Source: Candidatus Omnitrophota bacterium (GTDB lineage Bacteria > Omnitrophota > Gorgyraeia > Aquiviventales > Aquiviventaceae). From it: DNA of 64,000 bases. The stretch lies in contig JACPAY010000005.1 in assembly GCA_016180575.1 (NCBI GenBank), positions 3,234-67,233 on the forward strand, in the 5' to 3' direction. Both the position numbers and the translations under genes were made by a program. Of this stretch, positions 9,975 to 62,207 are shown piece after piece. Numbering within the stretch: position 1 is the stretch's first letter; every line of letters starts with the position of its first letter. The notes beneath the pieces are model-generated. The model had not been told where the DNA came from. It searched no databases and saw nothing but the letters and a program-made list of their open reading frames with translations.

Positions 9975-10516
9975 CGAGGCGATGGGTCGTGACGACGCTG
10001 GGGAAGGACCGCCCGGGGATCGTCGCGGGGGTCACGAAGATCCTCTACCGGCTTGGCTGCAACCTCGAGGACTCGGCGATGACGCGCCTGGCCGGGGAGT
10101 TCGCCATCATGCTCATCTTCTCGGCGCCGGCCAAGGCGGCCGAGGCCGCCCTGCGGAAGGCGTTCGCGCCGCTGGAGCGGGGGCTGTCGCTGACGGTCCA
10201 TCTGAAGCCGCTGACGAAAGCGGAGATCGCTTCGCCCCGAAAGCGGGGGCGGGCCTACGTGATCTCGGTCTACGGGGCGGACCATCCCGGCATCGTGTTC
10301 CGCATCACGGACTCGCTGGCGCGCGCCGGGGTCAACATCACCGACCTGCACACGCACCGCACCGCCGGGGACGGGGCGCCGCTCTACCTGCTCCTGCTGG
10401 AAGTGGAGACCCCGCCGCGGGTCAGCGCCGCCAGGCTTGAGCGGCGCCTGCACACCCTGGCCACGACGCTGCGTGTTGAAGTCAGCTTCCGCCCCGCAGA
10501 CGCCGCCGTCCTCTAA
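9971..10516 (+). CDS. Tandem ACT-domain protein (GcvR-like)
   Basis: Two DRPGIV/DHPGIV ACT motifs. ATGA overlap with bioB. Confidence 0.65.
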   Translation: MTRRWVVTTLGKDRPGIVAGVTKILYRLGCNLEDSAMTRLAGEFAIMLIFSAPAKAAEAALRKAFAPLERGLSLTVHLKPLTKAEIASPRKRGRAYVISVYGADHPGIVFRITDSLARAGVNITDLHTHRTAGDGAPLYLLLLEVETPPRVSAARLERRLHTLATTLRVEVSFRPADAAVL

Positions 10517-10576
10517 TCGGGGACAGCCACTAATTTCCCTATGGCAGACTCAAGGAAATCAGTGGCTGTCCCCGAT
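10515..10576. repeat. Family C inverted repeat copy C1 (arm AATCGGGGACAGCCACTAATTTCC)
   Basis: 24-nt arms with one mismatch and a 14-nt loop. Overlaps the ACT-gene stop and the def start. Confidence 0.9.
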
Positions 10577-11071
10577 TTTTCCATCCGGCGGTTTCCGGAC
10601 CCCCTCCTCAAGCAGCCGACGCGCCGCGTGGACCGCGTGGACGACCGCATCCGGGCGCTGATCGACGCGATGGTGCGGACGATGCGCCATCACCCCCGCT
10701 GCGTGGGCCTGGCAGCCCCCCAGGTCGGCCGCGGCCTGCGCATCGCGGTGATGGACGCCTCCCGGCACCCCAAGGCCGCGGCGAGCCTCGGCCTGCTCGT
10801 CCTCGTCAACCCGCAGATCCTGGAGCGCGAGGGCAGCCTGCTGCAGCGGGAAGGGTGTCTCTCCGTCCCGGACTTCACCGGCAACGTCCCGCGCGCGTCG
10901 CGCGTGCGCCTGGCAACCTGGGACCGGGCGGGCTCCGCGATGGAGCTTGAGCTGGAGGGGTTCGAGGCGGTCATCGCGCAGCACGAGGTGGACCATCTCG
11001 ACGGGACGCTGTTCCTGGACCGCGTCGCCAACCTCGCCACCGATGTCTTCAAGCGGAAAACCTACCTGTGA
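10541..11071 (+). CDS. def: Peptide deformylase
   Basis: GLAAPQVG, EGCLSVP and HEVDHLDG motifs. Both candidate starts (ATG 10541, GTG 10562) lie inside element C1. Confidence 0.85.
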   Translation: MADSRKSVAVPDFSIRRFPDPLLKQPTRRVDRVDDRIRALIDAMVRTMRHHPRCVGLAAPQVGRGLRIAVMDASRHPKAAASLGLLVLVNPQILEREGSLLQREGCLSVPDFTGNVPRASRVRLATWDRAGSAMELELEGFEAVIAQHEVDHLDGTLFLDRVANLATDVFKRKTYL

Positions 11072-11080
11072 AGAAGGCGT

Positions 11081-11164
11081 GTGAGTCACAAAGTCACAAG
11101 GTCACAAAGTCACACGTGTGACCTTGTGACCGCGTGGTAGTCTCCAGTGTGTGACCCTGCGACC
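11081..11164. repeat. Family D: inverted arrays of GTCACAA(R)/(Y)TTGTGAC 8-mers, copy D1
   Basis: Four forward units, then two plus two reverse units split by a 16-nt spacer. Lies between convergent def and mqnD. Confidence 0.85.
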
Positions 11165-12766: not shown

Positions 12767-12816
12767 GAAAAAGTACCAGGTACTTTCTCCGCTTTGAGAA
12801 GTACCCGGTACTTTTT
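12767..12816. repeat. Family F: two A-like palindromes (AAAAAGTACCnGGTACTTTTT)
   Basis: gaaaaagtaccaggtactttc and gagaagtacccggtacttttt, 29 nt apart start to start, in the divergent FNR-mqnD / mutY intergenic region. Confidence 0.75.
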
Positions 12817-26024: not shown

Positions 26025-26030
26025 TATAAT
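26025..26030 (+). promoter_or_regulatory. -10 box TATAAT upstream of sodN
   Basis: ggtgtataat. About 45 nt of leader carrying the SD. Confidence 0.4.
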
Positions 26031-29192: not shown

Positions 29193-29222
29193 TTGACGCT
29201 CGTCTCCGCGCTCAGGTAGACT
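29193..29222 (+). promoter_or_regulatory. Sigma70-type promoter for the riboswitch-controlled operon
   Basis: TTGACG - 18 nt - TAGACT. The predicted TSS is just upstream of the aptamer. Confidence 0.5.
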
Positions 29223-29231
29223 TCATTCAAT

Positions 29232-29349
29232 ACTCTCGAAACGGCAAACTTCCCGCAAGGGAGGGACGCAAAGCCGCGGGTCCTGGTGCCTGGCTCTTCG
29301 CGAAGCGAAGTGCCTGGCACCGGAAGGATAGCCGGGCTACCGAAAGAGG
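29232..29349 (+). promoter_or_regulatory. c-di-GMP-I (GEMM-I) riboswitch
   Basis: ACGGCAAAC-[ttccc GCAA gggag hairpin]-GGGACGCAAAGCC-[long P2 hairpin ggtgcc..ggcacc]-AAGGATAGCCGGGCTACCGA matches the order and conserved blocks of the Vc2-type aptamer as I recall them. Ends at the ATG of the DUF948-like gene. Confidence 0.75.
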
Positions 29350-29673
29350 ATGACTGACGCGCTTCTGCTCGTGATTGCTGCAAGCATCATCGGCGTGTGC
29401 CTCCTCGCGACCACCCTTGCCACTCTCTCCACCATGCGTGAGTTCCGCGCGACGCTTGGCGAAACACGGGAGCTGCTGGCCAGATGGAACGCGATGACGC
29501 GGCGCGTCGAGGCGGTGGTCGGCTCGGCCTGCGATGCCGCCTCCGCGACGCTCGAGGGGCTCTCCCGCTGGAAGGCGCGGGCGGAGCAGGTGTTCACAGG
29601 CCGATCGGGAAACGGGGCGAGGGCGGAGCCTCGCCGGCATGGCAGGTCAACCAGAGGAGGGGAACGGGGATGA
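29350..29673 (+). CDS. DUF948-like small membrane protein
   Basis: N-terminal TM plus helical region. First gene downstream of the GEMM-I riboswitch. Confidence 0.5.
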   Translation: MTDALLLVIAASIIGVCLLATTLATLSTMREFRATLGETRELLARWNAMTRRVEAVVGSACDAASATLEGLSRWKARAEQVFTGRSGNGARAEPRRHGRSTRGGERG

Positions 29674-29987
29674 AGCGGACTCGTCGAGGGAAGACAGGGT
29701 TGCTGCAGGCGACGGCTTCATTTGTGCTGGGGGCGGTGACGGGGGCCATCGTGGCGCTGCTCTACGCCCCCACATCCGGGCAGGTCGCCAGGAGACGGCT
29801 GGCGATGAAGGCCCGCGGGCTGCAGCGCACCGCGGTCCGGCGTCTCGGCCGCGCCCAGCGGGCGCTGGCGACGAAGGCCGAGCACGTCCGCGAGGCGGCC
29901 GCCGGATGGATGACGGAGCGCTTCCCGGTCCGGAACGGCCGGCATCCGATCCGCCATCGCGCGATCCGTCACGCGGCGGCGCGGTAA
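29670..29987 (+). CDS. YtxH domain protein
   Basis: GAVTGAIVALLYAPTSGQVARRRL YtxH signature. ATGA overlap with the preceding gene. Confidence 0.65.
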   Translation: MKRTRRGKTGLLQATASFVLGAVTGAIVALLYAPTSGQVARRRLAMKARGLQRTAVRRLGRAQRALATKAEHVREAAAGWMTERFPVRNGRHPIRHRAIRHAAAR

Positions 29988-29990
29988 GTT

Positions 29991-30053
29991 AATCGGGGAC
30001 AGCCACTAATTTCCTAGTGGTGGCCGAAGGGAAATTAGTGGCTGTCCCCGATT
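29991..30053. repeat. Family C inverted repeat copy C2
   Basis: Perfect 24-nt arms at 29991-30014 and 30030-30053. Confidence 0.9.
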
Positions 30054-30098
30054 GTTTCCCGATTGTTTCCCCAATTGTTGGCGATTGTTTGCTATAAT
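30049..30098 (+). promoter_or_regulatory. Four tandem 11-bp iterons (CGATTGTTTCC x2, CCAATTGTTGG, CGATTGTTTGC) abutting a TATAAT box
   Basis: Iterons at 30049-30092; TATAAT at 30093-30098. The first iteron overlaps the end of element C2. Confidence 0.6.
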
Positions 30099-30158
30099 AC
30101 GCTCACTACACGGAGCTTTTGCCTTCCTGCATCGCACGCCTGAATCCGTACTGTATCC

Positions 30159-30323
30159 ATGCGCAACCGCGCCGCCCGCGACATCGGCGAGGAACTGAAA
30201 CAGATCCTCGCGCGGCTCAGGGCGCTGGCGAAGGATGAGCGCGCCGCGCGCGGCCCTGAAGCCGAAGCCCTGGAGATCGCCATCGTGAACCTCGACAGCG
30301 CCATCGAGATCCTGACGGAGTAG
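30159..30323 (+). CDS. Unannotated 54-aa helical protein (MRNRAARDIGEELKQILARL...)
   Basis: Below the ORF-track size cutoff. ATG..TAG in frame with strong GC3 bias. Stop is 2 nt before the next start. Confidence 0.5.
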   Translation: MRNRAARDIGEELKQILARLRALAKDERAARGPEAEALEIAIVNLDSAIEILTE

Positions 30324-30325
30324 CC

Positions 30326-30610
30326 ATGCCGGACATCAGCGTGACCACCGCCGCCACGAACGACGGCTGGACCTTCGGCGTGCAGGTGGCGGAGGCGAAC
30401 GGGCAGACGCGGCACAGCGTCACCCTCAGCCAGCGGGACTTCGCGCAGCTCACCGAAGGCAAGCAGACCACGCCGGAGGAGCTGGTGCGAAAGTCCTTCG
30501 AATTCCTCCTCGAGCGGGGGCCGAAGCACCAGATCCTGCGCCAGTTCGACCTGCCGGCGATCGTCCGGTACTTCCCCGACTACCCCACCGCCATCCGCAG
30601 CAAGCTCTAG
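30326..30610 (+). CDS. Conserved hypothetical 94-aa protein (ELVRKSFEFLLERGPKHQILRQFDL..RYFPDY)
   Basis: High GC3. The motif resembles a widespread uncharacterised small-protein family as I recall it; not verifiable here. Confidence 0.6.
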   Translation: MPDISVTTAATNDGWTFGVQVAEANGQTRHSVTLSQRDFAQLTEGKQTTPEELVRKSFEFLLERGPKHQILRQFDLPAIVRYFPDYPTAIRSKL

Positions 30611-34575: not shown

Positions 34576-35124
34576 CTAATTGAGCGTGGAGGCCGACTTG
34601 GGGCCCCCGCGCGGCCCAGGCGCGGCGCACTGGTTGGCGGCGCAGGCGGGGTTGCGGTGCAGGAGGTAGCGGTGAGATGCCACCCAGCGGTAGAGCCGTG
34701 TTCCAACCCAGCGCGCCCCCGGCAGATGCGCCAAGGGGGCGAGCCACCATAAGAGCGGCAGCCGCCTCGTCATCCGCGCAAACGCCTCAAACCCCCCAGT
34801 GAGCCGGCCGTTGGGCTCCAGCAGGATCATCTCGCTGCGGCACCGCTCCGGCGTGAGGACGGGGCTGAGCCGCGTGAGGTCCGGCTGCGCGTGGAAGTCC
34901 AGCGGGTCCAGCCAGCCGAACAGGTCCAGGGCCCGCAGCCGCCGGACGCTCTCCAGGCAGAGTCCGCAGCGGCCGTCGTAGAGGAGGATCGCCCGGCCGC
35001 GCGCGGCGTGCGCCGCCCGCCGCCCCTCGATCCACCGCCCCACCGCCGCCGGCCGGATGAGAGGCATCAGGGGATGACGAACCGCGTGATGAGCGTGTGG
35101 CGGCGCAGGCGCATGTACGCCCAT
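34576..35124 (-). CDS. Thiol-disulfide oxidoreductase DCC family (DUF393)
   Basis: LLYDGRCGLC motif. Start uncertain; an alternative ATG gives a 5' end at 35067. Confidence 0.65.
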   Translation of the reverse strand: MGVHAPAPPHAHHAVRHPLMPLIRPAAVGRWIEGRRAAHAARGRAILLYDGRCGLCLESVRRLRALDLFGWLDPLDFHAQPDLTRLSPVLTPERCRSEMILLEPNGRLTGGFEAFARMTRRLPLLWWLAPLAHLPGARWVGTRLYRWVASHRYLLHRNPACAANQCAAPGPRGGPKSASTLN

Positions 35125-35131
35125 TATACGC

Positions 35132-35137
35132 TATAAT
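35132..35137 (+). promoter_or_regulatory. -10 box TATAAT 9 nt before the aconitase ATG (leaderless-type)
   Basis: gctataatgaaaattcgATG. Confidence 0.45.
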
Positions 35138-46399: not shown

Positions 46400-47188
46400 A
46401 TGGGCAGCCAACGGGCGTTGCTGGGCTGGGTCGAGCGCCAGGTCCTCGCCTGCCGGCCGATCGCCCTGCGGCACTTCCGCTCCCGGGCGCTCCGCGTCGA
46501 GCGCAAGAGCGACCGGTCGCCCGTGACCGCCGCGGACCGGGCCATCGAAGCGCGGCTGCGGCGGGCGCTCGCGCGGGCCTGTCCGGGGGAGAGCATCGTC
46601 GGGGAGGAGTTCGGGCGCACAGGGCGCGATCGCGCCACCTTCTGGACGCTCGACCCCATCGACGGGACCCGGGCGTTCTCCCGCGGCCTGCCGTCCTGGG
46701 GCATCATGGTCGGCCGGGTGGAGCGCGGGCGGCCCGCCTTGGGCCTCATCGACTTTCCCGCCGTCGGGGTGACCATCGGCGTGGCGCCGGGGGTGGCGGC
46801 GTATGAGCGGGGCAGGGGCGGGACGAGCCGGCTGCCTCGCCCGAGGGCCGTGCGGTCGCTGCGGGAGGCGGTGATTTTCCACGGCGGTGCGCACTGGTGG
46901 CAATCCACGCGGTATGCCGCCGGGTTTGTCCGGGTCGCGCGCGCCTGCTTCCTCGAGCGCGCCTACGGGGACTGCTATGGGTACCTGTGGGCGCTGCGCG
47001 GCGGCGCGGACGCGGTGCTCGATTACGGGGTCAAGGTCTGGGACCTGGTGCCGCTGGCCGCGCTGGCCCGGGCGACGGGCCGCGCGCTGACCGACTGCCG
47101 CGGCCGCCCTTCCTGGACCGGGCCGGACTCCATCTTCGCCTCGCCACCCCTTGCCCGCCTCATCGCCAGCACGCTCAGGCATGCCTGA
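46400..47188 (+). CDS. Inositol monophosphatase family protein
   Basis: SPVTAADRAIE, WTLDPIDGT and WDLVPLAAL motifs. Confidence 0.8.
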   Translation: MGSQRALLGWVERQVLACRPIALRHFRSRALRVERKSDRSPVTAADRAIEARLRRALARACPGESIVGEEFGRTGRDRATFWTLDPIDGTRAFSRGLPSWGIMVGRVERGRPALGLIDFPAVGVTIGVAPGVAAYERGRGGTSRLPRPRAVRSLREAVIFHGGAHWWQSTRYAAGFVRVARACFLERAYGDCYGYLWALRGGADAVLDYGVKVWDLVPLAALARATGRALTDCRGRPSWTGPDSIFASPPLARLIASTLRHA

Positions 47189-48491
47189 GTTCGCCTTCCC
47201 GGACGGCTTCCTCTGGGGCAGCGCCACCTCCGCCCACCAGGTCGAGGGGGACAACGTCCACAGCGACTGGTGGGCGTGGGAGCAGGCCGGCCGCGTGAAG
47301 GAGCCCTCCGGGCTCGCCTGCGACCACTACCGGCGCTTCGCGCAGGATTTCGACCTCGCAGCGGAGCTGGGACACAACGCGCACCGCTTCTCGGTTGAGT
47401 GGAGCCGCCTCGAGCCCGCGGAGGGCCGGTGGGACGAGGCGGCGCTTGCGCACTACGTCGAGGTGGTGCGCGCGCTCCGCGCGCGGCGCCTGGAGCCGAT
47501 CGTGACGCTCCACCACTTCACCACCCCCCAATGGTTCGCCTTGCGGGGCGGATGGGTGCGGCCGGACTCGGTGGAGGCCTTCGCGCGGTATGTCCGCCGG
47601 GTCGCCGCGGCGCTGGGCGATTCGGTCCGGTACTGGGTCACCATCAACGAGCCGATGGTCTATGTCCGGATGCATTACATTCAGGGATTGGGCCCGCCCG
47701 GCGCCCGCGACCTCCCGCAGGCGCTCCGCGTCATCGAGCATCTCATCCGCGCCCACGCGGCCGCCTACCGCGTGCTGCACGGCGCGCGCCGCGGGCCAGG
47801 CCCGGCCCCGCAGGTCAGCGTCGCCCATCACGCCCCCGCCTTCGGGCCGTGCCGGCGGTGGTGGCCGCCGGACCGCTGGATGGCCGCGCGGACCGACCGC
47901 GTGTTCAACTGGGCGCTCCTCGAGGCGCTGACCGAGGGCCGGTGGGTCGTGCCCGGAGTGGGGAAGTGGCGCATCCCGGAGGCCGCAGCGACGCTCGACT
48001 ATGTCGGCGTGAACTTCTACGGGCGGCAGTTCATCCAGTGGGCCCCCGCGGCGGGCGCGTGGCCCGGCGCGAGCTGCGACCTGGGACACCATCCGCGGGA
48101 GGTCACCGAGCGCACCTCGTACGGCTGGGATGTGCACCCGGCCTCCTTCGTGCAGGTCCTCTCGCGCATCGGGCGGATGGGGCGGCCGATCCTCGTGACG
48201 GAAAACGGCACCTACATGCAGGACGACGCCAGGCGCTGGGACTTCATCCTGCGCCACGTGCAGGCGATGGCGCGCGCGTTCCAGCAGGGCGCGCGGATCA
48301 TCGGCTACTGCTACTGGTCGCTCCTCGACAACTTTGAGTGGGCGGATGGGTTCGGCCCGCGCTTCGGCCTGGCGGAGGTGGACTACGCGACCCAGCGGCG
48401 GACCATCCGAGACAGCGGCCGCCGGTACGCGGAGATCTGCCGCGCCAACCGCGTGGAAATCGGGGACATGGAAATCGGGGACAGCCACTAA
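47181..48491 (+). CDS. GH1 beta-glucosidase
   Basis: FLWGSATSAHQVEG, TINEP (acid/base) and VTENG (nucleophile) motifs. The last ~10 codons and the stop are encoded by element C3. Confidence 0.85.
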   Translation: MPEFAFPDGFLWGSATSAHQVEGDNVHSDWWAWEQAGRVKEPSGLACDHYRRFAQDFDLAAELGHNAHRFSVEWSRLEPAEGRWDEAALAHYVEVVRALRARRLEPIVTLHHFTTPQWFALRGGWVRPDSVEAFARYVRRVAAALGDSVRYWVTINEPMVYVRMHYIQGLGPPGARDLPQALRVIEHLIRAHAAAYRVLHGARRGPGPAPQVSVAHHAPAFGPCRRWWPPDRWMAARTDRVFNWALLEALTEGRWVVPGVGKWRIPEAAATLDYVGVNFYGRQFIQWAPAAGAWPGASCDLGHHPREVTERTSYGWDVHPASFVQVLSRIGRMGRPILVTENGTYMQDDARRWDFILRHVQAMARAFQQGARIIGYCYWSLLDNFEWADGFGPRFGLAEVDYATQRRTIRDSGRRYAEICRANRVEIGDMEIGDSH

Positions 48492-48544
48492 TTTGCGAAT
48501 GGGAACAATTGTGTCCAGGCTTAAATTAGTGGCTGTCCCCGATT
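48455..48544. repeat. Family C inverted repeat copy C3 with 15-nt tandem duplication of the left end
   Basis: ggaaatcggggacat/ggaaatcggggacagccactaattt ... aaattagtggctgtccccgatt. Confidence 0.85.
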
Positions 48545-48548
48545 GTTG

Positions 48549-49392
48549 ATGCGGGCGTTGGTGCTGGGGGCGACCGGGCATATCGGGCTGCCCCTGGGTG
48601 TTCCATGCCGCTGGCTACTATCCCCGGTTTCGAGAGCGGCGCAAGGAGGCCATCGAGCGGGGCCTCCGGTCCACGCGCCGTCTCCTCGAGCAGCTCCGGC
48701 GGATGGGCCCCGCGCGCATCGTCTTCACGAGCAGCGCAGCCACCATCCGGCGCGTGCCCGGGCGGCCGGCGACCGAAGCGGACGCCGAGCCCTGGCCGCC
48801 GGCCGAGTGGCGGCCGCTCTACGCGACGGTCAAACTCGCGATGGAGCACGAGGTGCTGGAGGCCTGCCGGGGCGGGCTGCCCGCCGTCGTGGTGAACCCC
48901 AGCCTCTGCGTCGGGGAGTACGACGCGCGGCCCTTCTCCGGCCGGGCCGTCCTGGCATTCGCCCGGCCCGGCATCCCGGTCTACGTGCGGCACACCTTCA
49001 ACGCGGTCTACACCGGCGACGTCGCCATTGGGCACCTCCGCGCGGCCGAGCGGGGGCGTCTCGGCGAGCGCTATCTCCTCGTCGGCCGCAACGTGACCCT
49101 GCGGGAGTTCGCAACGCTCGTCGCCCGGGCGGCCGACGTGTGCCCGCCGCGGTGGCGCGTCCCGTACGGCCTCGTGTGGGCCGCGGCCGTCTCGACGGAG
49201 GCCGCCGCCTGGCTGGCGCGCACCGAGCCGTTGCTGCCGCGGGGTGCTGTCCACTCGCTGCGGATGGGACAGCTGCTGGATGGGACGAAGGCGCTGCGGG
49301 AGCTCGCGCTGCCCCAGACGCCGCTTGAGGAAGCCATCCGGCGGGCGCTTGCGTGGTTTAAGTTGCTTCCTTCCGGTATCAGATACCGGTAA
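48549..49392 (+). pseudogene. NAD-dependent epimerase/dehydratase with internal deletion and frameshift
   Basis: MRALVLGATGHIG Rossmann start (frame of 48549) is joined after ~16 codons to VFHAAGYY... (frame of 48598). About 50 residues normally between these motifs are missing. Confidence 0.7.
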
Positions 49393-49427
49393 AATAAACG
49401 GGTTAGTAGGCCGGTATCTGATACCGG
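49373..49427. repeat. Family B inverted repeat copy B3
   Basis: ccggtatcagataccgg ... ccggtatctgataccgg. Encodes the last codons (GIRYR) and the stop of the epimerase pseudogene. Confidence 0.85.
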
Positions 49428-49441
49428 AACGGGAGGCGCTC

Positions 49442-56990: not shown

Positions 56991-57090
56991 GTCACAAAGT
57001 CACACAGAGGAGAAGCTGCACGCGGTCACAATGTCACATGGCTTCATGGCCAGTCCACCTTGTGACTTTGTGACCTTGTGACTTTGTGAC
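56991..57090. repeat. Family D copy D3
   Basis: 2+2 forward units and 4 reverse units (cttgtgactttgtgaccttgtgactttgtgac), between nuoD and nuoI. Confidence 0.85.
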
Positions 57091-57108
57091 TTCATAGGAG
57101 TATCTGCA

Positions 57109-59002: not shown

Positions 59003-60775
59003 ATGACATCGCAGCCTGGGGACTCTCCAGCCCGCGTCGCGGCCTCGGAGCCGGCCGCTATCGAGTGGGAGCGCAAGCCGAAGACGATCGACGCCAACCT
59101 CAAGGACTACGACGCCGCCTACAAGGGCTTCGACTGGAAATCGGTCGAGCGGGAGTTCGACTGGTCGAAGACGGGGAAGGTGAACGTGGTCCATGAGGCG
59201 GTGGACCGCCACGCCGCCTCCCCGCGCAAGGACAAGCTCGCGCTCGCCTTCACCGACTTCGCGGGCCGGGATGAGCGCTGCACCTTCCAGGACCTCAAGC
59301 GGCTCACGAGCCGCTTCGCCCACGCGCTGCGGCAGCTCGGCGTGAAGAAGGGCGACCGCGTGGGGACGTTCCTGCCGCGCACGCCCGAACTCTACATCGC
59401 GATCCTCAGCATCAACCGCATCGGCGCCATCCCCGTGCCGCTCTTCGAAGCGTTCATGGAGCAGGCGGTCGAGGACCGGCTGGGGGACAGCGAGGCGGTC
59501 GCCTGCGTCACCTCGCCCGCCCTGAAGGGCCGCATCCCGCTCAAGAAGCTGCCGAAGCTCAAGCGGCTCATCCTCGTCGGCGCCTCCGGCGCGCTCGCCC
59601 CCAACGAGGCGAGCTACGAGCAGGCCACCGCCAACGCCCCGGATTGGGTGGAGCCGGAGTGGCTCACTGTTGACGACGGCCTCGTCATCCACTACACCTC
59701 AGGCTCCACGGGAAAGTCCAAGGGGGCGCTCCACCGCCAGTACGCGATGGTCGGCCACTACCAGACGAGCAAGTGGGCGCTCGACCTGCGGGATGACGAC
59801 GTGTACTGGTGCACGGCGGATCCTGGGTGGGTGACCGGCACCTCCTACGGCATCTACGGTCCCTGGACGCTGGGGATCTCGAGCGTCGTGATCGGCGGCC
59901 GCTTCGACCCGGACCGGTGGTACGAGACCATCCAGCGCTACAAGGTCACGATGTGGTACAGCGCGCCCACCGCCTACCGCATGCTCATGTCCGCGGGCGA
60001 GGCCATCCCGAAGAAGTACGACCTCAAGAGCCTGCGCCACATCTGCAGCGTCGGCGAGCCGCTCAATCCGGAGGCGCTGAAGTGGGTCAAGAAGATCACG
60101 GGCCTGGCGCCCCATGAGACCTGGTGGATGACCGAGACCGGCATGCAGCTCATCTGCAACTATCGGAGCAAAGATTTCCCCATCGGGTGCACGGGCAAGC
60201 CGTTCCCGGGCACCTACGCGACGGTGGTGAACGACCAGGGCAGGGAGCTGCCGCCGGGCGAGCTCGGCCACCTCGTCGTCAAGCCGGGCTGGCCGTCGAT
60301 GATGAAGGAGATCTGGCGAAACCCCGTCAAGTATCAGGAGTACTTCCGCATCCCCGGCTGGTATGTGAGCGGCGACAGCGCGTACCGGGACGAGCAGGGC
60401 TACCTCTGGTACCAGGGAAGGGCGGACGACGTCATCAAGACGGCGGGCGAGCGCGTGGGGCCGTTCGAGGTCGAAAGCGCCCTCGTCGCGCACCCGGCGG
60501 TGGCCGAGGCGGGGGTGATCGGCAAGCCCGACCCGGTGCGCGGGCACATCATCAAGGCCTTCGTCTCGCTGCGCAAGGGCCACCAGCCCTCGGAGCAGCT
60601 CAAGCAGGACATCGCCGACTTCGTGAAGAACAACCTTGCGGCCCACGCCGCCCCGCGCGAGATCGCGTTCGTGGACAAGGTGCCCAAGACCCGGTCGGGG
60701 AAGATCATGCGCCGCGTCCTGCGCGCCTGGGACCTCGGCCAGCCCGTCGGCGACATCTCGACGATGGAAGAATGA
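59003..60775 (+). CDS. acs: AMP-forming acetyl-CoA synthetase family ligase
   Basis: YTSGSTGKSKG AMP motif, WWMTETG, SGDSAYRDEQGY and PKTRSGKIMRR motifs. Confidence 0.8.
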   Translation: MTSQPGDSPARVAASEPAAIEWERKPKTIDANLKDYDAAYKGFDWKSVEREFDWSKTGKVNVVHEAVDRHAASPRKDKLALAFTDFAGRDERCTFQDLKRLTSRFAHALRQLGVKKGDRVGTFLPRTPELYIAILSINRIGAIPVPLFEAFMEQAVEDRLGDSEAVACVTSPALKGRIPLKKLPKLKRLILVGASGALAPNEASYEQATANAPDWVEPEWLTVDDGLVIHYTSGSTGKSKGALHRQYAMVGHYQTSKWALDLRDDDVYWCTADPGWVTGTSYGIYGPWTLGISSVVIGGRFDPDRWYETIQRYKVTMWYSAPTAYRMLMSAGEAIPKKYDLKSLRHICSVGEPLNPEALKWVKKITGLAPHETWWMTETGMQLICNYRSKDFPIGCTGKPFPGTYATVVNDQGRELPPGELGHLVVKPGWPSMMKEIWRNPVKYQEYFRIPGWYVSGDSAYRDEQGYLWYQGRADDVIKTAGERVGPFEVESALVAHPAVAEAGVIGKPDPVRGHIIKAFVSLRKGHQPSEQLKQDIADFVKNNLAAHAAPREIAFVDKVPKTRSGKIMRRVLRAWDLGQPVGDISTMEE

Positions 60776-60799
60776 AAAACGGGACCGGGTCCCTTTTTT
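60775..60799. repeat. Family A palindrome copy A7
   Basis: aaaaacgggaccgggtccctttttt, starting at the last base of the acs TGA stop. Confidence 0.85.
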
Positions 60800-60817
60800 C
60801 CACCGTTGGCCGATCAG

Positions 60818-60842
60818 AAAAAATGGACCCGGTCCCAATTTT
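60818..60842. repeat. Family A palindrome copy A8
   Basis: aaaaaatggacccggtcccaatttt, supplying the tlpA-like start codon. Confidence 0.85.
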
Positions 60843-62148: not shown

Positions 62149-62207
62149 GTCACAAGGTCACAAGGTCACAAGGTCACATGTGACGTGTGACGCTGTGACG
62201 TTGTGAC
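62149..62207. repeat. Family D copy D4 (most regular)
   Basis: gtcacaag x3 + gtcaca | tgtgac gtgtgac gctgtgac gttgtgac, starting 4 nt from the queD ATG. Confidence 0.9.

Follow-up and report, generated by a model that had tools for sequence, protein, structure and literature searches.

Apparent iterons beside a −35-less promoter in an Omnitrophota-like genome are probably end duplications of a TIRYT-type REPIN

In Neisseria, Correia elements are small mobile repeats that form hairpins in intergenic positions and can influence both termination and promoters; their ends carry promoter boxes. REPIN–RAYT systems have been described in Pseudomonas and Enterobacteria (Bertels & Rainey 2011; PMC3116915, PMC3337134). 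For these classical REPINs, co-option as terminators has been proposed for doublets flanked by A/T runs, and tandem arrangements are known and unexplained (PMC3337134). A related group appears in the relevant passages of Di Nocera et al. (2013), where RAYT-like genes with terminal inverted repeats that share the motif GGGGWSAS are called TIRtrons, or TIRYT, and where the repeats are also said to be dispersed as dimers and clusters (PMC3733652). The corresponding passages of Quentin et al. (2018) place TIRYT in subclass 2.1 of TnpA_REP, give it a C-terminal HTH-like domain, and state that REP-like structures were not found for this subclass (PMC6006769).

Here we show that a hairpin within a 64-kb stretch of DNA, hereafter the window, is a REPIN: two inverted ~24-nt REPs whose core, GGGGACAGCCAC, is the terminal-repeat motif of TIRYT, a branch of the REP-associated Y1 (HUH) tyrosine transposases. 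TIRYT-type REPs and REPINs are an already described kind of element, found here in an Omnitrophota-like genome. Short direct repeats lead from this hairpin into a TATAAT box and had been read as iterons. We consider it probable that the REPIN has taken the place of a terminator just ahead of an ancestral promoter that lacks a −35, and that the 'iterons' are a partial duplication of its end (an end-stutter) and not an evolved operator.

The hairpin spans 29991–30053, and its 24-nt arms (AATCGGGGACAGCCACTAATTTCC) are 100% complementary across a 15-nt loop. The left REP arm (29991–30014, + strand) reads AATC-GGGGACAGCCAC-TAATTTCC, with a core that recurs in 77 loci; the spacer, or loop (30015–30029, + strand), is not conserved among family members; and the right REP arm (30030–30053, − strand) is a perfect inverted copy of the left, as arm search and RNA fold both indicate. 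Read 5′ to 3′, the window runs TAATCGGGGACAGCCACTAATTTCC-TAGTGGTGGCCGAAG-GGAAATTAGTGGCTGTCCCCGATT, then GTTTCC, CGATTGTTTCC, CCAATTGTTGG, CGATTGTTTGC and TATAAT. Searching the window for the 24-mer arm with up to three mismatches returned six matches, equal to three doublets, against 0.00 in 100 shuffles, and the predicted RNA fold of 29975–30100, which holds the stem, has an energy of −60.7 kcal/mol (z = −6.3). With perfect arms and six arm matches, the hairpin of the original prediction, its 'family C' with 24-nt arms, was borne out.

The other two doublets are a REPIN between an ACT-domain gene and def (copy 1, 10515–10577, + strand) and a REPIN with a longer spacer (copy 3, 48473–48544, + strand), both located by arm search. 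Hence, of the three positions first given for the family, 10515 and 29991 stand and 48455 does not: it is the start of TGGAAATCGGGGACA ×2, a 15-nt tandem duplication that forms a left-end stutter on copy 3 (48454–48483, + strand). Because of this duplication, the claim that the other copies carry a single, unexpanded end unit is only half right. The repeats also reach into coding sequence. The GH1 gene at 47151–48491 ends within a REP: the stutter and left REP arm (48454–48491) supply both its stop codon (TAA in CACTAATTT) and the codons for its final ~12 residues (VEIGDMEIGDSH). The ACT-domain gene upstream of copy 1 (window 10514–10580) has a stop codon that the REPIN overlaps (TAA in cTAATCGGGG). 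Because the peptide deformylase ORF begins at an ATG inside the loop of copy 1 (10541), with a Pfam match that does not set in before residue 15, the REPIN encodes the N-terminus of def.

A repeat search with the pattern GGGGACAGCCACTRATTT, using one genome per species, found 77 loci in Omnitrophota, Desulfobacterota, Planctomycetota, Coprothermobacterota and other phyla. Most are inverted doublets whose spacers are very different in length and sequence, and the motif is present many times in several MAGs. In a set of 185 distinct arms there is almost no variation in the 12 bases GGGGACAGCCAC, which have AAAT[C/T] on the outer flank and [T/C][G/A]ATTT on the inner flank. These flanks pair with each other: 70.6% of cells pair, compared with 66.3% in shuffles (0 of 500 reach the observed value) and at most 50% with the partner slid, and the closing pair covaries (CG 38, UA 33, UG 31). 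The REP monomer is therefore a small stem of 5–6 bp (AAATY/RATTT), weak and short, around a conserved 13-nt loop, and the doublet is a long hairpin. Neither a GTAG nor a CGTC tag stands out in the position frequencies of the arms, where conservation lies in GGGGACAGCCAC. Among the arms GGGGACAG is invariant, and it fits the TIRYT terminal-repeat motif GGGGWSAS as given in the pertinent passages of PMC3733652 and PMC6006769.

The family includes copies that surround a transposase gene. At locus L029, five direct and five inverted copies of the core bracket a 234-aa ORF that matches Pfam Y1_Tnp (E = 5e-14) and whose top NCBIfam match is the REP-associated tyrosine transposase NF047646, with IS200 at 20.6 bits. 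NF047646 scores of 73.2 and 69.6 bits extend over the full profile length and lie below the curated cut-off of 80. A 56%-identical homolog at L023 is likewise flanked by core copies, as is P0135 in a repeat-rich Omnitrophota MAG (L093), where the copies are inverted. Seven homologs all keep the HUH motif NH[VAI]H and the tyrosine motif RY[VI]ExNP; they measure 222–234 aa against a core profile of 146 positions and have a conserved C-terminal stretch of ~85 residues in common. Pfam detected no second domain in these proteins, and the transposase had no match among PDB sequences at E ≤ 0.01. The protein family comprises at least 7,896 clusters at E ≤ 1e-10. Since GGGGACAG fits the TIRYT motif and GGGGACAGCCAC repeats bracket Y1 genes, the hairpin is a TIRYT-type REPIN. 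No Y1 transposase gene lies within the 64-kb window, so the TIRYT link of its genome is by family membership. At L029 (6404–7622), the REP copies around the Y1 gene are spaced 29–50 nt apart and the right-hand array has a short CCGATCTC stutter. Some TIRYT genes overlap the flanking repeat at their 3′ end, and their protein ends in ...VAVPD, encoded by GTGGCTGTCCCTGAT (L093 2170–2187; C-terminus of P0129).

Other identities for the hairpin were rejected. An integron attC site lacks support in the form of R''/R' core motifs, and the housekeeping gene context misfits. There is no direct target-site duplication, as the flanks AATC/GATT are inverted, which excludes a Tn3-type or IS630-type MITE. 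A Tn7- or Mu-like multi-site transposon end was set aside because the gene between the L029 arrays is a Y1 transposase, and a CRISPR repeat because the elements are inverted doublets and not direct repeats with spacers. Rfam holds no family for the hairpin or the array at gathering threshold or at E ≤ 1, apart from a chance mir-373 match (22.7 bits against a cut-off of 69), and a search of the literature with either strand of GGGGACAGCCACT brought up nothing but eukaryotic primer sequences without relation to the element. The window contains other repeats as well. A separate family at 11084–11136, 56991–57092 and 62149–62207 has three to four tandem copies of GTCACAAR facing three to four inverted copies of YTTGTGAC, that is, hairpins built from short tandem 8-mers. 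Three further hairpin doublets with palindromic arms, at 60775–60842, 12768–12816 and 49371–49429 (AAAAACGGGACCGGGTCCCTTTTT, AAAAAGTACCNGGTACTTTTT, TTCCGGTATCWGATACCGGAA), look like further REPIN-type families or bidirectional terminators.

The REPIN at 29991 lies in a conserved gene neighborhood. Upstream, a c-di-GMP-I-GGC riboswitch (29234–29345, + strand; Rfam, 62.9 bits, cut-off 59) heads a two-gene unit that ends in a YtxH-like gene (29670–29987, + strand), and the REPIN lies in the terminator slot of that gene. Downstream follow a 54-aa ORF (30159–30323, + strand), called in all orthologous loci, and a 94-aa ORF (30326–30610, + strand) with 106 homologs, the best named of which comes from an Omnitrophica MAG; neither ORF has a Pfam match. 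Contigs with homologs keep the order AsmA, riboswitch, ~110-aa gene, YtxH, intergenic region, 54-aa ORF, 94-aa ORF. In the window, the two genes of the riboswitch unit encode a 107-aa membrane protein and YtxH, and the riboswitch is preceded by a promoter-like TTGACG-18-TAGACT (window 29193–29345). L090 has a standard c-di-GMP-I aptamer where the window has c-di-GMP-I-GGC, and in the more distant L095 and L096 the whole riboswitch unit is absent, with the 54-aa ORF directly 3′ of AsmA.

In Omnitrophota relatives, the slot after YtxH normally holds a plain intrinsic terminator. It reads AGCAGAAACAGCAGCC-TTGC-GGCTGCTGTTTCTGCTATAAT in L087 and L089 (94-aa ORF 89% identical), AAAAAACGGCAGCTACGG-AACC-CCGTAGCTGCCGTTTTTTGCTATAAT in L090 and L091 (81%), CGGCAGCCC-ACCC-GGGCTGCCGTTTTTTGCTATAAT in L107 (82%), and CAGCAGTCTACGC-TTCG-GCGTAGGCTGCTGTTTTTTCTTCC, a GC stem with T6, in L097 (70%), while L105 (82%) has a hairpin and then ...GGGTGGGTTTTTGCTATAAT (...TTTTTGCTATAAT). 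The GC stems of L090/L091 and L107 are followed by TTTTTTGCTATAAT. Only the closest relatives, L084–L086 (93%), have a REPIN of the same family in the slot, followed by GATGATTTGTCCTATAAT; the layout there is REPIN, GATGATTTGTCC and TATAAT, without the four-unit array. Comparison of these loci shows the hairpin to stand in the predicted terminator slot of the riboswitch-controlled unit, a slot that a REPIN occupies in two lineages. A consensus terminator scan misses both the 29991 REPIN, whose loop exceeds 8 nt, and the ortholog terminators, whose A-run pairs with the T-run; these hairpins were read directly from the sequence. A small palindrome (ATTGCGT-CA-ACGCAAT; L084 2182–2200) stands between the YtxH stop and the REPIN in the sister lineage; the part that overlaps the REP outer flank is its 3′ half, in effect an inverted, not direct, copy of the REP end.

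Downstream of the slot, the TATAAT at 30093–30098 is preceded by TG, giving an extended −10 element, TGCTATAAT (TGnTATAAT; 30090–30098, + strand), 60 nt 5′ of the ATG of the 54-aa ORF. It is unique in the window (one match against 0.03 expected), and it or a close variant occupies the same place before the 54-aa/94-aa pair in five ortholog groups. In three groups the terminator T-run leads into GCTATAAT; a fourth has TGTTTCTGCTATAAT. No −35-like hexamer was called upstream of the 30093 TATAAT or found in any orthologous promoter, where the terminator 3′ arm, with its T-run, lies at that position. As the orthologs keep this passage from T-run to GCTATAAT without iterons, the predicted −35-less extended −10 promoter of the gene pair is shown to be ancestral and independent of the iterons. 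The window holds six TATAAT boxes where 0.68 would be expected (about nine-fold), each of them just upstream of an ORF start, a count that marks the box as one in wide use in this genome and, together with the conservation of TGCTATAAT, supports the original placement of a promoter here. The TATAAT sites at 26025, 27783, 30093, 35123–35137 and 54258 all lack an obvious −35, and the pair at 35123/35132 is divergent and overlapping.

The 5′ leader of the gene pair (30099–30158, + strand; CACTACACGG...ATCGCACGCCTGAATCC) is conserved as well. Its 60 nt are conserved at the nucleotide level in L084–L089 (CACTACAYGG ... ATCGCACGCCYGAATCC) and hold no clear Shine-Dalgarno sequence by eye; the leader may be structured or regulatory. 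A metagenome scan with the promoter-leader pattern TATAATRSGYKCACTACAYGG found seven loci, of which one was relevant (L086) and the rest were chance matches in low-GC contigs.

The four-unit array leads from the arm end to the promoter. Delimited by Tandem Repeats Finder, motif positions and orthologs, it covers 30045–30092 (+ strand) as TCCCCGATTGTT / TCCCGATTGTT / TCCCCAATTGTT / GGCGATTGTTTGC; Tandem Repeats Finder itself reported 30045–30090, with period 11, 3–4 copies and scores of 51–64. The motif CGATTGTT/CAATTGTT starts at 30049, 30060, 30072 and 30082, a spacing of 11/12/10 nt with a mean of 11. Units 1 and 2 are identical, unit 4 is off at one position and unit 3 at four. The prediction of four 11-bp iterons at 30049–30092 therefore holds for the number of units and fails for the strict period, with just two units identical; that the units run directly into TATAAT (30093–30098) proved correct. 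With one mismatch allowed, the window yields 18 matches to CGATTGTT, where 20.6 would be expected; the motif as such is therefore not overrepresented, and four such matches inside 44 nt form a cluster far above chance. Two small ORFs over the array (30052–30198, + strand; 30006–30137, − strand) were discounted as genes, since they overlie the REPIN and stutter, which orthologs do not share.

The composition of the units points to where they came from. The natural repeat unit, TCCCCGATTGTT, takes in the final C's of the hairpin arm, so the array re-uses the arm end. Unit 1 is the true REP end. Unit 3 (CCCCAATT) resembles the AATT variant of the REP end, a look that repeated insertions or conversion fit as well as simple slippage. 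Unit 4 (TTGTTTGC) contains the ancestral T-tract of the orthologs, and comparison with them shows that this last 'iteron' does not derive from the REP. What is repeated is therefore the stretch in which the REP end (CCCGATT) meets the T-run (GTTT). Three further samples of this population, which is present in samples SRR12113383–431, carry the array unchanged; their short-read contigs break exactly at the REPIN. Among the orthologous loci compared, the array is restricted to the lineage of the window.

We weighed this origin against the original reading, in which the units bind an activator or repressor, or form a curved phased element, and replace the −35 of the TATAAT promoter. Several features are as that reading would have them: the units abut a perfect extended −10, a −35 hexamer is absent, the mean period is 11 nt, the region is AT-rich (46–48% GC in a ~70% GC genome) and the array is stable across samples. 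Yet the same promoter is kept without iterons, and also without a −35, in at least four ortholog groups, and the slot of the closest relative holds a REPIN without the four-unit array; the units thus do not appear to stand in for a −35. The spacing of 11/12/10, with only two identical units, counts to some degree against a helically phased array, and the orthologous promoters lack the array. T-runs of at most 3 nt are too short for classical A-tract bending, which speaks against intrinsic curvature. Exact CGATTGTT is confined in the window to three array sites and the end of the third family copy, a REP end; equivalent stutters are found at copies away from promoters and with periods of 8–38 nt; and both downstream ORFs are without any Pfam match. 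We regard an operator or curved element as very improbable.

A different possibility is that selection favored the expansion at the terminator–promoter junction, where the units would regenerate a UUGUUU tail and space the hairpin from the −10. Orthologs do hold terminators with T-runs in this slot (textbook stems and T6), five of the first eight nucleotides after the REPIN stem are T (GATTGTTT), and A/T-flanked REPIN doublets have been proposed as co-opted terminators (PMC3337134). The sister lineage, however, manages with REPIN, GATGATTTGTCC and TATAAT, and a single unit would be enough for the tail. Selection of this kind seems to us unlikely, if somewhat less so than an operator.

The partial copies are not peculiar to this locus. 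We scored as stutter any partial direct copy of an arm's outer end (a 9-mer of six flanking bases plus GGG) within 40 nt outward, at periods under 26 nt. Stutter was present at 25 of 166 distinct arms (15%). The controls gave 1–4%: 2 of 166 arms in a far window, displaced outward by another 80 nt (Fisher, 2.5e-6), and 6 of 166 for the inner side (Fisher, 5e-4). Across phyla the period can be anything from 8 to 38 nt, and 11 nt is not favored. The copies include copy-specific flanking sequence, and their outer boundary is roughly fixed while their depth into the REP varies; many are perfect (8/8, 9/9, 10/10, 19/19 and 21/21 identical). In the window, the left-end stutter of copy 3 forms the GH1 C-terminus, ...VEIGDMEIGDSH*, and lying inside a gene end it cannot be a promoter device. 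Stutter is hence a family-wide trait, and outer-end duplication is a recurrent mutational by-product in this REP family.

These family-wide data bear on whether the units were instead left by several independent REP or REPIN insertions at one site, later truncated. The CCCCAATT of unit 3, which is the other common variant of the REP end, and the existence of direct arrays of full REPs would suit such a history. Against it, units 1 and 2 are identical, and many of the stutters at other loci repeat even the flanking bases peculiar to their copy in perfect tandem (up to 21/21), which indicates local duplication. Repeated insertion therefore appears improbable.

The same data allow a role for the partial copies in the element itself, as extra TIRYT binding or cleavage sites or as alternative 3′ stem strands kept for REPIN mobilisation. 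Stutter is polar, confined to the outer end, and enriched across phyla; it has a roughly fixed outer boundary with variable depth into the REP; the outer flank is the stem of a monomer stem-loop with covariation; and multiple direct REP copies flank transposase genes. But only 15% of arms stutter, with wide variation in depth and period, the invariant core is missing from most partial copies, and the relevant passages of PMC6006769 give no biochemistry for TnpA_REP subclass 2.1. We hold a function for the element to be about as improbable as repeated insertion. Somewhat more credible, though still doubtful, is that the stutter is an enzymatic footprint of TIRYT, in which the enzyme would nick the REP at a fixed boundary on its outer foot and nested partial copies would be left behind, through run-off with re-priming or through misaligned rejoining.

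Taken together, the evidence favors a REPIN in a terminator slot beside an ancestral promoter, with an end-stutter between them. The stable REPIN stem and its GAUUGUUU tail may serve as a terminator or 3′ stabiliser of the upstream transcript, and transcription of the 54-aa/94-aa pair, driven by TGCTATAAT, would begin within a few nucleotides 3′ of 30098. The 'iterons' would then be three additional direct copies, in part decayed, of the CCCGATT/T-tract (GTTT) junction. Such copies may have arisen when the transposase nicked the outer foot and run-off with re-priming followed, through misaligned rejoining, or when the polymerase stalled at the hairpin foot. Most simply, the extra units would be neutral debris; a four-unit AT-rich array beside a −10 box could also have an incidental effect on promoter or termination.

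An apparently designed promoter would thus be the overlap of an ancestral −35-less promoter, a terminator slot occupied by a hairpin, and an end duplication, and the locus cautions that REPIN debris can be misread as regulatory iterons. For those who work on REPINs, a side result is a single invariant 12-nt REP core common to genomes of many phyla. About one arm in seven has a polar outer-end duplication, which may mark a site of transposase or replisome action. Were the footprint reading true, it would give a first sequence-level handle on where, and by what steps, the very widespread TIRYT subclass processes its repeats, and on how REPIN ends can seed phased AT-rich arrays by promoters that selection might recruit at a later stage.

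Among described systems, TIRtrons come closest. As in the passages that define them, GGGGWSAS (GGGGACAG) is part of the repeat and lies inverted around a long Y1 HUH transposase (L029, L023, L093), the repeat is also dispersed as dimers and clusters, and the transposase has a conserved C-terminal extension. Measured against the same passages, the core here is longer (12 nt) and invariant across phyla, hosts include Omnitrophota, and, unlike what PMC6006769 states there of subclass 2.1, the core is the loop of a small covarying stem; the passages concerned in PMC3733652 and PMC6006769 make no mention of an outer-end stutter. With REPIN–RAYT systems the family shares the inverted REP doublet, long hairpin and variable spacer, a mostly extragenic, multi-copy distribution, and, in three other genomes here, a RAYT gene flanked by REPs. 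It differs in that the GTAG/CGTC tag is absent, in that its core is common to many phyla, where classical REPINs are inherited vertically and restricted to a lineage, and in that its tandem feature is a partial copy of an end where REPIN–RAYT tandems repeat the whole REPIN.

Like an intrinsic terminator, the hairpin combines a strong stem with a U-rich stretch behind it, at the predicted 3′ end of a transcription unit, and orthologs have canonical terminators in exactly the same slot; unlike one, it has a stem of 24–26 bp, a 15-nt loop and an interrupted tail (GAUUGUUU). The array resembles the iteron and operator arrays of plasmid origins and phased repressor sites in its short direct repeats of about one helical turn next to a promoter element, but it is not conserved in orthologs, its spacing is irregular, and its units come from the end of a mobile repeat. 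Finally, in contrast to the promoter boxes that Correia elements carry in their ends, the TATAAT here is ancestral host sequence and lies outside the element.
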